Source: Escherichia coli
GTDB lineage: Bacteria; Pseudomonadota; Gammaproteobacteria; Enterobacterales; Enterobacteriaceae
Assembly (NCBI RefSeq): GCF_045037415.1
Contig: NZ_CP173438.1
Length of the DNA stretch: 64,000 nucleotides
Direction: 5' to 3' (one strand)
Below, one piece after another: positions 54,959 to 57,900 of the stretch. The position numbers are program-made. Within the stretch, counting starts at the first letter, position 1; each line of letters opens with the position of its first letter.

Positions 54959-57900
54959 TAAGTTCGCTAAAAAACAGAACGGGGCCAAAAGGTCCCGTTT
55001 TTTTCGCCTTTATTTAGGAAAAGTGTCCAGAGGGGGCGAGGGTTATCGGGGAGTATAATTTCGCCATTCAGCAAGAATGGAAAGAATAATGCAAAGCGGA
55101 AAATGGATTTTGACCTCGCTGGTAATGACTTTTTTTGGCATCCCCATACTGGCGCAATTTTTGGCAGCGGTTGTTGCCATGCTGGGGGCCGGGCTTGCCG
55201 CTATTCTTGAGGTTTGCAATTTACTCTTTACGCCAACAATTTATCTTCTACTCAACGTCTTTATGCTGACGCTGGGGGCGATAATCATATTTTTCTCTGG
55301 TCGCGTGTGGGCTGGTGATAGCGCACCAGAAAAAAGAGAAATAGCCGCCTGGCGACAATGCTTTTTTCTCTTACCCGCGCTATTAACCCTGGTTGGCTGG
55401 ATAATCGCGCTACATCTGGCAGATTATCAATTTCGCCAGATGGGATCGGGCTGGTTGGCAAACCTTATGCTTTCCTGGCAGGGTGTTTTGTTACTCTCAT
55501 TAATCAGTGGCGACTACTGGTGGATAGTCATTATACCCGTTGGCGCGCATATCAGTTTTTCGCTGGGATACGGCTGGCCGACAAGGCATCCTTTAACCGG
55601 CACGTCCGGGCTACGTTGCCGTAACTTACTCCTGTTTCTACTTCTCTTACTTGGTTTTGTCGCTGGGTATCAGGCTTATTTATATAAACAGCTTAATCCC
55701 GGTGTCGGTGTGCGTGAAAATATTGATACCTGGGCCTGGCGACCCGATAAACTTAATAATCAACTGACGCCACTGCGTGGTAAACCACAAATTCAATTTA
55801 CGCAAAACTGGCCGCGACTCGATGGCGCTACGGCGGCGTACCCCATTTATGCCTCTGCATTTTATGCATTAAGTGTAATACCAGAGGATTTTCACGTTTG
55901 GGATTATCTGGATAACTCTCGTACGCAAGAAGCATATAACAAAATCGTTAACGGTGATGCCGATATTATTTTCGTGGCGCAACCTTCCGATGGGCAAAAA
56001 AAACGCGCTGAGAAATCGGGCGTCACTTTGCTGTACACGCCATTTGCCCGTGAAGCGTTTGTTTTCATCGTCAATGCGGATAATCCGGTTAATTCCCTGA
56101 CTGAACAACAGGTGCGTGACATTTTCAGTGGCGCAATTACCAACTGGCGCGCGGTTGGCGGTGACGATCAGGAGATCCAGACCTGGCAACGCCCGGAAGA
56201 CTCTGGCAGCCAGACGGTGATGCTATCGCAGGTCATGAAAAATGTCCGCATGATCTCGCCGCAGGAAACGGAAGTGGCAAGCGTGATGGAGGGAATGATT
56301 AACGTTGTTGCCGAATACCGTAATACAAAAAACGCAATAGGCTACACCTTCCGCTATTACGCAACACAAATGAATGCCGATAAAAATATAAAACTGCTAG
56401 CGATTAACGGTATTGCACCGACTGCGGAAAATATTCGCAACGACAAATATCCCTATATCGTCGATGCCTTAATGGTAACGCGGGAAAATACGACGTCAGA
56501 GACACAAAAATTGGTGGAGTGGTTTTTAACGCCGCAGGGGCAGAGTTTGGTGGAAGATGTGGGCTATGTGCCGATGGATAAAACGTTGCATTAAGCAGGA
56601 TTACAATATGGATATCATTAATATTTTCCTGAACGCGGCGAATGCCCTTTTTATCTATCAGCCGTTTATGCACGATCAGCGGGCGAGGGGGTAATTATGC
56701 ACCCCACTCCTGCCATGCAGGCATTAATTGAGCAGATATATCATATTTTTCGTCGTTATCCGGCGCCGCAGCAATTTGTGGTTTGTTGTGAATATTGTCT
56801 GAGTCAACAGGAACAAAAAGCATTACGGAATACATCGTTGCGAGCGATTCCTTATTCCTTAATCAATGCCTGGAATAGTAGTCCAGGACCTGATCCGCAA
56901 AACAGCGATGAGGTTCGTTATTTTCTGCCTTGTTTACTGGAGTTTGTTGCGCAGGGGCAATTTGACAATATTCACGAAGTATTTTCTCTACGGCGTATCA
57001 ACCTTGCCAGTAAAGAAAACTGGCGTGAGGATGAACGGGAAATATTGCAGCAATTTGCTTGCCAGTATATGACTGATTGGGTATCCGGGGATGAGGCTGT
57101 CGAATTACAGTACAAGCTGGAAATGTTTTTCCGTGCCGATATCGCTCTTTCGCCATTGCTTGATGCCATTATTTCAGTTCCCGGATTTTGGTCGGCAGCG
57201 TCTCTTGCCTGTTTATTGAATACGTATCGTGACGGTTATATCAGAGATAATCAGGACGATATCGATAAAGCCATTACCACTCAAACTAATACTTGGGCTA
57301 GTAATAATCAATCCATCCTGAAAGAACGCGCGCGGCAGGCGATTGAGAATCCGCTTAAGCAGTCCGAACAGGGCACACAGTATCAGGCCTGGGAAGACGA
57401 GTGGATGATTGATGAGTGTTTATGTGCCATGTATGACGCATCATCCGAATCATCAGGACATTAAAGATGAATAAAATCAGACTTTATATTTACCCTGTAA
57501 TTTTCGGTTTTGTTATCGTACCATTATTGGTATGGCCGACGGTTATTGCCTTAGCCGTACTTATATTCACGTTAACTTTTCTGGCTGAAATAATATTCTC
57601 CTTTCCGCTCCTGGTTGTGCGTATTTCTCTTCAGGAATTACAACTTGAGTTATTGGTTGAATATGCACTTTTTTTCAGTGTAATGGGTGGCATCGGTTGG
57701 CAATTCTCCCGCAGAACGCCTCCTGAATTAAAAAACAGGCTACATTGCTGGCTGGTTTTTTCTCCGGTCTATTTCTGGTTAATTCTCTCGAATTTCATTC
57801 TTTATATTTCTCCAGAGAAATCAGCGTTGCTGGAAAATATCCGAAATTTCTTTCTGACATTTGTCTGGCTTCCCCTGAATTTTTCCCCTTTTTGGCCGCA

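Follow-up and report, generated by a model that had tools for sequence, protein, structure and literature searches.

PstS (TIGR02136/PF12849; structures 4GD5, 4Q8R, 1TWY and 9L8J) has a type II periplasmic binding-protein fold. OpuA- and GlnPQ-type ABC importers carry a substrate-binding domain fused to the permease, and LuxP-LuxQ and TorT-TorS are binding-protein-dependent sensors. The Tli, Tai and Tsi families are periplasmic immunity lipoproteins of T6SS effectors, and orphan immunity genes and islands are known. Here, we analysed a gene in a 64,000-nucleotide stretch of Escherichia coli DNA (contig NZ_CP173438.1; hereafter the window) that encodes a membrane domain fused to a PstS-like fold. 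The protein shares with PstS the fold itself (target-normalised TM-score of at most 0.79), the LT.EQ(I/V).DIFSGKI.NW..VGG block, the R..SG(T/S) anion loop and Thr/Ser at two N-terminal helix caps. It departs from PstS in that a 206-residue polytopic membrane domain replaces the signal peptide or lipobox, pstCAB genes are not linked, the TIGR02136 score is 118.8 bits against the curated cut-off of 206.6 bits, the third phosphate-contact loop reads IIFVAQ, SGTR has become SGSQ, and F425-R426-Y428 are invariant. As in OpuA and GlnPQ, a polytopic membrane domain is covalently joined to a binding-protein fold; here, however, the membrane domain comes first in the chain, with no BPD_transp/EAA-loop signature in Pfam and no transporter fold relatives, and no ATPase gene is found near the gene. 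As in LuxP-LuxQ and TorT-TorS, a flytrap domain would dock onto a membrane protein, and a split version made of a lipoprotein and a 200-residue platform exists, but the platform lacks a kinase, a cyclase or any other cytoplasmic module.

The gene sits intact between glgP and glpD in E. coli, and is made up as follows.

54978..55004, plus strand: likely glgP terminator, AACGGGGCC-AAAA-GGTCCCGTT with a T run behind it, seen on direct inspection of the sequence
55086..56594, plus strand: membrane-anchored PstS-like gene, 502 residues from the RefSeq start, in a reading frame that opens at 55077 (Pfam, RefSeq, AlphaFold, dN/dS)
55086..55694, plus strand: membrane domain, residues 4-206, with no Pfam family (AlphaFold helices, charge counts, Pfam, Foldseek)
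55695..55811, plus strand: ordered linker, predicted periplasmic, residues 207-245, with conserved E214, P223 and L230 (alignments; block pLDDT 77-97)
55812..56591, plus strand: PstS-type (PBP_like_2) Venus-flytrap domain, residues 246-505 (Pfam, PDB search, Foldseek, alignments)

The reading frame at 55077-56594 on the plus strand translates into 505 residues. Translation, Pfam, AlphaFold and Foldseek confirmed the fusion described in the initial annotation, and the three motifs quoted there (LTEQQVRDIFSGAITNWRAVGG, EDSGSQ and AIGYTFRYYA) are all found in the translation. RefSeq places the start at 55086 (502 residues, WP_122984432). Since homologues begin at a Met equivalent to 55086 in the alignment and a GGAAAG is read 7 nt upstream of this position, 55086 is the likelier start. 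The putative terminator, which is absent from the list of a consensus scanner, parts glgP from the PstS-like gene, which would therefore need a promoter of its own; a TATAAT lies at about 55053-55058. No Pho box (CTGTCAT-type repeat) was seen by eye in the ~80 bp of 55005-55085, which is a weak test, and no Rfam RNA element was found in the region of 54-59 kb.

Between E. coli alleles, dN/dS was 0.10-0.16 for the binding domain and 0.19-0.36 for the membrane domain, and values of 0.1-0.36 were obtained across both domains even in between-genus comparisons. The gene is thus real and subject to purifying selection. About 38% of E. coli genomes, K-12 included, are without it; in K-12 only the yzgL stump of 74 codons is left, and split, truncated and IS-interrupted copies exist. 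Such copies might be taken to mean that the fusion is a relic without function, left over from a rearranged pstS-like gene at an intergenic hotspot where junk collects. This reading is barely credible in view of an open reading frame that is intact in thousands of genomes, a structure predicted with high confidence and an architecture conserved across bacterial families, and it was rejected on the dN/dS values.

The assignment of the C-terminal part to a PstS-like fold was borne out by profile and by structure. Pfam PBP_like_2 (PF12849) matched residues 249-485 with an E value of 2.4e-29, PDB sequence matches to PstS proteins reached down to E 1.5e-18, and the best Foldseek matches of the domain, modelled with a pLDDT of 90.5, were the PstS structures 9l8j, 4gd5, 1twy and 4q8r. 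Against TIGR00975 the protein scored 15.1 bits (cut-off 205), likewise below the threshold, and a lipoprotein paralogue of the binding domain scored 130.4 bits against TIGR02136. In alignments with canonical PstS, the anion pocket is conserved in part: T252, S281/T283, R372 and S376-G377-S378 are kept and are invariant or nearly so, but half of the phosphate-binding motifs, namely the first-loop Ser, the third loop's polar residues and the Arg that follows SGT, have been replaced. The changes are GS(T/S)(A/T) to GATA, IGNSD or IGMASR to IIFVAQ, and SGTR to SGSQ; F425-R426-Y428 are new invariant residues. The retained anion half-site likely still binds a ligand. Between E. coli and Klebsiella, the domain is 65-67% identical at the syntenic site.

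Genes for pstC, pstA or pstB were linked to the PstS-like gene neither in the window neighbourhood nor in more than 20 related loci. In the canonical PstS comparators, the gene is followed by two ORFs of ~300 residues and in several loci also by one of ~250-270 residues, sizes that would suit pstC, pstA and pstB. The neighbours in the window are glgP, hypothetical genes of 255 and 201 residues, and glpD, in agreement with the earlier statement that no ABC permease or ATPase genes lie nearby. No transporter or signalling gene was linked to the family in any locus examined, and no conserved partner gene emerged, the neighbours of Gram-positive and planctomycete relatives being unrelated and inconsistent. 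The absence of pstCAB, the score below the cut-off, the remodelled pocket and a membrane domain without a permease-like fold show that the protein is not part of a transporter, and the view that it is no classical ABC importer component therefore stands. In thousands of E. coli, Salmonella and Klebsiella genomes the gene is labelled as a phosphate ABC-transporter subunit, a name that is probably wrong.

Hydrophobic segments cover residues 10-203 of the 505-residue protein (Kyte-Doolittle), and AlphaFold2 places six helices in this region (H5-46, H53-82, H87-114, H124-144 with a kink at 131, H149-169 and H177-206). The initial description of about 210 hydrophobic residues with some six helices was therefore accurate, and neither a cleavable signal peptide nor a lipobox was found. 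Modelled alone, the membrane domain gave a pLDDT of 88.7 and a pTM of 0.86. Mean loop charges over the whole family were +1.4 for the N-terminus, +2.2 for loop 76-93 and +3.6 for loop 170-182, the others being about 0 or negative. The predicted topology has a cytoplasmic N-terminus, five crossings plus a kinked periplasm-side hairpin (residues 124-144), and a periplasmic C-terminus. Only P23, W148 and Q199 are invariant, with almost no conserved polar residues. The domain had no significant Pfam match and no fold relatives outside its own family in a Foldseek search of AFDB50. A single-sequence scan of 1.84 billion representatives, a profile search and the AFDB50 fold search recovered no other architectures, only the family itself and fragments. 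The domain is a previously undescribed fold family without known relatives, which the present analysis defines.

Conservation of the membrane-fused architecture extends from Enterobacterales to a betaproteobacterium, and structural matches occur in Bacillaceae. In O157, a gene for a lipoprotein binding domain overlaps the start of a 200-residue platform gene. This split version, the conservation of the fusion across taxa and the pTM of the full-length AlphaFold model (0.81) indicate that the platform matters functionally. The full-length pTM also implies a confidently predicted domain interface, from which we infer a fixed docking of the flytrap domain onto the platform. The suggestion of a sensor was not supported in the form given, as there is no visible output: the cytoplasmic loops span ~13-16 residues, and no cytoplasmic domain is present.

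These features bear on the reading of the protein as a tethered oxyanion receptor, in which the flytrap would bind phosphate, a related oxyanion or a phosphoester, and would either pass it to a transporter encoded elsewhere (e.g. PstCA) or alter a partner membrane protein via the platform. The PstS-like fold, the four kept phosphate-contact elements, the strongly purifying selection on the binding domain and a synteny that is stable across Enterobacteriaceae all argue for it, and the predicted docking would resemble that of binding proteins onto membrane partners. We nevertheless regard it as unlikely, given the lack of any linked transporter or signalling gene, the short loops without an output domain, the sub-cut-off TIGR02136 score, a third contact loop that now reads F-V-A-Q together with the new F425-R426-Y428, the lack of a visible Pho box and the dispensability of the gene in many E. 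coli strains. It also leaves unexplained the paralogues in Rhs arrays described below.

The PstS-like gene heads a variable island with presence/absence polymorphism among genomes. GC content was 0.45-0.48 in the island and 0.53 in the flanks, and island alleles are deeply divergent (dS 0.2-0.5). Downstream of the PstS-like gene, the window holds the following.

56569..56691, plus strand: remnant of the 3' end of a 236-residue 'YbbD family' cassette gene (tblastn, 50% identity, E 6.5e-6)
56697..57464, plus strand: 255-residue cytoplasmic Cys-containing hypothetical protein, an island cassette gene without family match (dN/dS 0.16-0.35)
57467..58072, plus strand: 201-residue membrane protein, a free-standing paralogue of the membrane domain (hhalign; dN/dS 0.21-0.31)
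58094..58118, minus strand: GC-rich hairpin terminator that parts the island from the convergent glpD (terminator scan)

At the position of the remnant, the 236-residue gene is intact in 2326 E. coli genomes, and an intact version is present in L003. Homologues of the 255-residue gene occupy the same island in Superficieibacter and Pseudocitrobacter. The paralogy of the 201-residue protein with the membrane domain was established by hhalign (probability 97.8%, E 1.3e-12, 167 collinear columns; score 81 against 10-36 for controls) and by reciprocal HMM matches; direct BLASTP between the two was not significant, so that the homology is visible only by profile comparison with controls. Immunity-like cassettes of the island include ankyrin-repeat genes, tandem binding-domain paralogues and a gene of DUF4279-like ('faint') or YbbD type. 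In K-12, a YbbD_head relative follows an orphan Rhs tip. DUF4279 has been linked to immunity (PMC13304343). PADLOC matched none of the island genes, PHROGs returned only a generic phage PstS family, and plasmid searches found no mobile copies.

Lipoprotein paralogues that are 60-66% identical to the binding domain, and that keep all family-specific pocket motifs, are encoded right after Rhs C-terminal toxin tips and on the strand of the tips, in T6SS arrays of E. albertii and Salmonella. Two kinds of toxin tip, here called X and Y, precede them. In the Hcp-VgrG-PAAR-Rhs locus of E. albertii, toxin X is followed by the lipoprotein gene after an 83-bp gap; the Rhs gene is split by a frameshift in the assembly examined, so that no demonstrably intact toxin X gene was seen beside a lipoprotein. 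In Salmonella, toxin X occurs as degenerate orphans before lipoprotein genes in two array variants, and an orphan Rhs tip with toxin Y precedes a lipoprotein gene by 53 bp. In a second array, a toxin Y remnant precedes the lipoprotein gene, and one E. coli T6SS locus has an orphan lipoprotein gene between two Rhs genes. The lipoprotein genes are intact (dN/dS 0.12-0.29), whereas the Salmonella toxin X copies carry stop codons. Hence, like the Tli, Tai and Tsi proteins and orphan immunity genes, these paralogues fill the slot after the toxin tip in Hcp-VgrG-Rhs loci, outlast a decayed toxin, and occur in tandem and as orphans in toxin-free genomes. They differ in their PstS-like fold, for which we found no record in the literature as an immunity protein, and in a sequence whose conservation far exceeds what is typical of immunity proteins and which does not follow toxin type: although toxins X and Y are unrelated, the lipoproteins behind them share 72-77% identity. 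The PstS-like gene of the window differs further from these families in having a large membrane domain and no adjacent toxin. No toxin gene was found beside it or beside any membrane-fused member examined; its upstream neighbourhood consists of glgP and the terminator, not a toxin domain, and toxin adjacency is confined to the lipoprotein paralogues. In a tree, the lipoproteins branch from within the membrane-fused forms, which take the basal positions.

Neither toxin X nor toxin Y had a match in Pfam, NCBIfam or the PDB, and BLAST detected no similarity between the two or of either to the C92 peptidase YebB. The resemblance of a His...Asn-Cys motif to permuted papain-like enzymes is therefore a tentative lead. 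Both were absent from 5426 E. coli genomes, 3352 of which carry genes of the PstS-like family, the pattern expected for orphan protection against other species. A search of metagenomes for the exact DNA pattern of toxin X returned nothing; relatives with 39-56% identity were recovered there, and in 13 of 16 of their loci the next gene encodes a small three-helix membrane protein. This partner family is unrelated to the membrane domain or the 201-residue protein, and no remnant of it was detected in the enterobacterial toxin X loci. That the partners are membrane proteins is compatible with toxin action at the membrane or in the periplasm. None of the 16 loci contained a PstS-like gene, and the PstS-like partner is therefore either an enterobacterial peculiarity or not a true immunity protein.

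Taken with the island cassettes and the 201-residue paralogue, the lipoproteins behind toxin tips point to inter-bacterial conflict rather than nutrient sensing. Because these lipoprotein relatives directly follow T6SS Rhs toxin tips, envelope protection is more likely than phosphate import as the role of the PstS-like protein. We tentatively propose, at somewhat less than an even chance, that it is a standing periplasmic protection or orphan-immunity factor. The protein would be an inner-membrane protein whose N-terminal platform, with five crossings, a periplasm-side hairpin and a fold family of its own, holds the PstS-type flytrap at the periplasmic face of the membrane without serving a phosphate ABC importer. 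It may represent the ancestral membrane-anchored form of a PstS-derived family, of which the lipoprotein cassettes behind Rhs toxin tips would be offshoots, and would give standing (orphan) protection against Rhs-type toxins that enter from outside and have their site of action on the periplasmic side of the inner membrane. What the flytrap captures might be either the toxin or a phosphate-bearing envelope ligand needed by the toxin, through the retained Arg/Ser-Gly-Ser anion half-site and the family-specific hydrophobic and Arg/aromatic residues. The protective activity and the nature of the ligand are conjectural, and the role is carried over from the lipoprotein paralogues, whose own function is read from gene position.

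Several observations count against protection. The likeness of the lipoproteins of toxins X and Y is unlike classical toxin-specific immunity, and the cross-genus conservation at a syntenic site together with the kept anion half-site fits a small-molecule function. The literature offered no support that we could find for a protective role, nor a functional study of yzgL, the O-island 133 genes, a membrane-anchored PstS, or PstS/PBP_like_2 proteins as immunity factors. Moreover, the tethered oxyanion receptor stays a real rival because the metagenomic toxin X relatives pair with small three-helix membrane proteins.

A further reading is a housekeeping envelope protein. Platform and flytrap would serve in trafficking or quality control by binding, on the outer side of the inner membrane, the phosphorylated head group of an envelope lipid or glycan (such as a phospholipid, undecaprenyl phosphate or an LPS precursor). 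The lipoproteins of the Rhs arrays would be later derivatives, recruited because that molecule is also what the toxins attack. The basal position of the membrane-fused forms is in line with this, as are a pocket in which new hydrophobic and aromatic residues accompany an anion half-site, the modelled tethering of the binding domain at the membrane surface, and the membrane-protein immunities of toxin X relatives, which imply a membrane-level target; closely similar lipoproteins behind unrelated toxins would be expected if protection acts via the target and not the toxin. Since the gene is dispensable in many E. coli strains, the membrane domain has nearly no conserved polar residues and no lipid-handling genes are found as neighbours, we consider this quite unlikely.

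A broader form of the protection reading is more speculative, and we hold it to be improbable: platform and remodelled PstS flytrap would together form a new, widely conserved envelope-protection module. Instead of binding each toxin, the module would sequester or shield an envelope ligand that bears phosphate, and so give an immunity to membrane-directed T6SS Rhs toxins that is broad and independent of toxin sequence. A lipoprotein copy would then have been captured by the Rhs arrays of E. albertii and Salmonella as a self-protection gene, replacing the small membrane immunity protein used elsewhere. If the link to toxin arrays is a functional one, a fold for nutrient binding has been converted to envelope defence, and the K-12 pseudogene yzgL is the stump of a defence island. 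Two uncharacterised families of Rhs toxins come to light as well: X, whose partner gene is of one or the other of two kinds, and Y.

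In E. coli, three unnamed genes occupy the variable interval (the island) within the gene order glgC, glgA, glgP, three unnamed genes, glpD (opposite strand), glpE, glpG and glpR.

Features of the glgP-glpD interval, window coordinates
54978-55004: hairpin and T run directly 3' of glgP, read from the sequence
55077-56594 (+), RefSeq start 55086: membrane-anchored PstS-like gene, first of the three unnamed genes
56569-56691: 3' remnant of a 236-aa 'YbbD family' gene
56697-57464: gene for a 255-aa cytoplasmic protein with a CCEYC motif
57467-58072: gene for a 201-aa membrane protein

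The hairpin and T run after glgP imply that the first gene has its own promoter. Its start was taken as 55086, because homologues begin at the equivalent Met and GGAAAG lies just upstream. RefSeq names the product a 'PstS family phosphate ABC transporter substrate-binding protein'. The initial annotation had proposed a polytopic membrane domain fused to a PstS-like fold, and this architecture was borne out. A confident AlphaFold2 model placed six helices over residues 5-206, in agreement with hydropathy, and Pfam PBP_like_2 matched residues 249-485 (E 2.4e-29). The nearest solved sequences and folds to the binding domain were the PstS proteins 4Q8R, 4GD5, 4N13, 1TWY and 9L8J. Model quality was high for the full-length protein (pLDDT 90.5, pTM 0.81) and for the membrane domain alone (pLDDT 88.7, pTM 0.86). 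As also stated initially, no ABC permease or ATPase gene was present in the window neighborhood, and the evidence supported the view that the protein is no component of a classical transporter. The suggested role as a sensor fared less well, as the protein has no output domain of any kind.

With curated PstS models the window protein scored 118.8 bits (cut-off 206.6) and 15.1 bits (cut-off 205). For residue-level comparison, PstS genes were taken from a genome scan where two ~300-aa ORFs came next, joined in several loci by one of ~250-270 aa; these unannotated ORFs are sized like pstC, pstA and pstB. In the alignment, the family keeps the PstS residues T252, S281/T283, R372 and S376-G377-S378. 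It has GATA where PstS has GS(T/S)(A/T), IIFVAQ in the third contact loop versus IGNSD or IGMASR, and SGSQ versus SGTR, and has gained the invariant residues F425, R426 and Y428. Judged from sequence, an anion half-site appears to survive within a remodelled, more hydrophobic cleft. By eye, no Pho box was seen in the ~80 bp upstream of the gene. The window protein is not a bona fide PstS and is probably mis-named by annotation.

The binding domain must be periplasmic, because stand-alone lipoprotein paralogues of it exist. Across 27 family members, positive charge in the membrane domain peaked at the N-terminus (+1.4), loop 76-93 (+2.2) and loop 170-182 (+3.6), and the remaining loops were neutral or negative. 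The only consistent reading would be N-terminus in, five crossings and C-terminus out, with the kinked short-helix pair at 124-144 forming a periplasm-side hairpin rather than a crossing. Pfam had no match to the membrane domain, and a scan of 1.84 billion representatives returned 50 proteins, almost all of them belonging to this same family as fragments or fusions. Foldseek against AFDB50 likewise matched only family members, with weaker structural matches to 'phosphate-binding proteins' of Bacillaceae among them, and found no transporter fold resembling it. The membrane domain is thus a family of its own, without known relatives. The E. coli and Klebsiella proteins share 41% identity in the membrane domain and 67% in the binding domain; the membrane domain evolves about twice as fast, and purifying selection still acts on it. 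Its only invariant residues are P23, W148 and Q199, an argument against its being a catalytic or transport pore.

The 201-aa protein is a free-standing paralogue of this membrane domain. Profile-profile comparison gave a probability of 97.8% (E 1.3e-12) over 167 collinear columns from residue 1, and each HMM matched the other's family. The real alignment scored 81, compared with 21 for reversed, 10-15 for column-shuffled and 28-36 for block-shuffled controls. By word-indexed search the protein was confined to Escherichia, with alleles down to ~65% identity and dN/dS of ~0.2-0.3. In O157 (O-island 133), the fused gene is followed by a 330-aa lipoprotein binding domain and an overlapping 200-aa membrane-domain gene, a split version of the fusion. 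This arrangement and the high full-length pTM suggest that the two domains operate as a single unit. No Pfam, NCBIfam, PADLOC or PHROGs family matched the 255-aa protein; homologues occur in the same island of Superficieibacter and Pseudocitrobacter, and some E. coli islands carry two tandem paralogues. The 236-aa YbbD gene is intact at the same spot in 2326 E. coli genomes, so the window allele derives by deletion from the commoner four-gene island.

Among 5426 complete E. coli genomes, 2431 carried the three-gene island (identity 88-100%) and 3352 a gene of the window-gene family. Synonymous divergence between island alleles is deep (dS 0.2-0.5), and island GC is 0.45-0.48 versus ~0.53 in the flanks. 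In K-12 the sole remainder is yzgL, the first 74 codons of the window gene. The fused gene occupies the same site, sometimes in tandem copies, in Escherichia, Klebsiella, Superficieibacter, Phytobacter, Intestinirhabdus and Pseudocitrobacter, and other sites in Budviciaceae, Leminorella, a second Salmonella lineage and Brachymonas. What lies downstream of it differs among loci: the YbbD family gene, one or two 255-aa paralogues, the 201-aa gene, ankyrin-repeat genes, a helicase with DUF2726, lipoprotein binding-domain copies and fimbrial operons. In one Superficieibacter version of the island (L016 11574-14381, locus coordinates), a defence-like 935-aa SF1 helicase with C-terminal DUF2726 has been inserted after the fused gene, ahead of the YbbD/255/201 cassettes. 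At the K-12 rhsD locus (L101 8430-9357), a short ORF directly after an orphan Rhs core fragment matches a 139-aa YbbD_head lipoprotein of the Klebsiella glgP-glpD island, which connects the island cassettes with Rhs immunity slots. The YbbD-like gene also gave a faint match to DUF4279, which is associated with immunity proteins (PMC13304343).

Lipoprotein paralogues of the binding domain were located in type VI secretion (T6SS) Rhs arrays, behind two C-terminal tips that we call toxins X and Y.

Toxin tips, in the coordinates of loci from other genomes and metagenomes
L094 9501-9896; L010 2598-2990; L105 6439-6819; L108-L123: toxin X, Rhs C-terminal family of ~130 aa with conserved THTFL and RNCK
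L096 7297-7947; L097 2-652; L010 5546-5766: toxin Y, Rhs tip of ~180 aa with VGHVFIGDENG and ETNCTVG motifs

Neither toxin matched Pfam, NCBIfam or PDB, and both were absent from E. coli complete genomes. The lipoprotein domains share 60-66% identity with the window domain and retain every family-specific motif; their array genes are intact, with dN/dS of 0.12-0.29. The E. albertii locus runs TssC, TssB, Hcp, VgrG and then a PAAR-Rhs gene with the toxin X tip; 83 bp separate this gene, which is frameshifted in the draft assembly, from the lipoprotein, and the next Rhs gene comes after that. In two Salmonella array variants a toxin X tip 67% identical to the E. albertii one, but carrying a stop codon, lies upstream of the lipoprotein. 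In another Salmonella array, a lipoprotein begins 53 bp behind the unrelated toxin Y tip, and a toxin Y remnant precedes a second lipoprotein in the first Salmonella array. In L010, a 108-aa three-helix protein comes after the lipoprotein behind toxin Y. One E. coli T6SS locus carries an orphan lipoprotein behind a different toxin-immunity pair. Lipoproteins behind X and behind Y share 72-77% identity, unlike toxin-specific immunity. In the binding-domain tree the lipoproteins form a clade nested within enterobacterial fused forms, which makes the fused form the ancestral one.

Scanning metagenomes with toxin X yielded 16 loci with relatives 39-56% identical. The DPxGL core-end motif was present in the toxin-domain ORF of at least 6 of these, several other contigs being too short to judge. 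The gene after toxin X encodes, in 13 of these loci, a 94-127-residue membrane protein of about three helices, most of these proteins ending in N.YG(S/T), and a PstS-like gene is absent from all 16; enterobacterial toxin X is followed by the PstS-like lipoprotein instead. The three-helix partners form a separate family, unrelated to the window protein's membrane domain and leaving no remnant in enterobacterial loci. Since its metagenomic relatives pair with small membrane proteins, toxin X probably acts at the membrane, and its PstS-like partner is probably an enterobacterial replacement or accessory rather than a universal immunity protein.

Our tentative reading, held at somewhat less than even odds, is that a PstS-derived family is tied to inter-bacterial toxin systems and has the window gene as its ancestral, membrane-anchored member, whose product would give standing protection in the periplasm, at the surface of the inner membrane. 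Two other explanations are kept because the anion half-site is conserved and no toxin adjoins any fused member: a tethered oxyanion receptor, which we consider rather unlikely, and, doubtful to a greater degree, a housekeeping protein that binds a phosphorylated envelope molecule and was the source of the copies recruited into the arrays. Selection and conservation rule out the idea that the gene is a decaying relic. No functional study of yzgL, of O-island 133 or of a PstS-like immunity protein turned up in the library searched. The PstS fold and immunity or orphan-immunity islands are of known kinds, and the membrane domain has no known relatives. The architecture alone is modestly interesting; the Rhs-array link of the proposed protection factor and the two alternative toxin X partners make the system experimentally attractive.

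Two fused genes outside the glgP-glpD site adjoin ruv genes: a divergent Salmonella member (L107 9001-11193) lies between ruvC and a yebB-like Peptidase_C92 gene, and the Brachymonas gene (L009 6938-9503) directly follows ruvB. This adjacency in two distant lineages may be chance. A second GC dip was observed at window positions 20001-22000 (0.459 versus ~0.52-0.56 around it).
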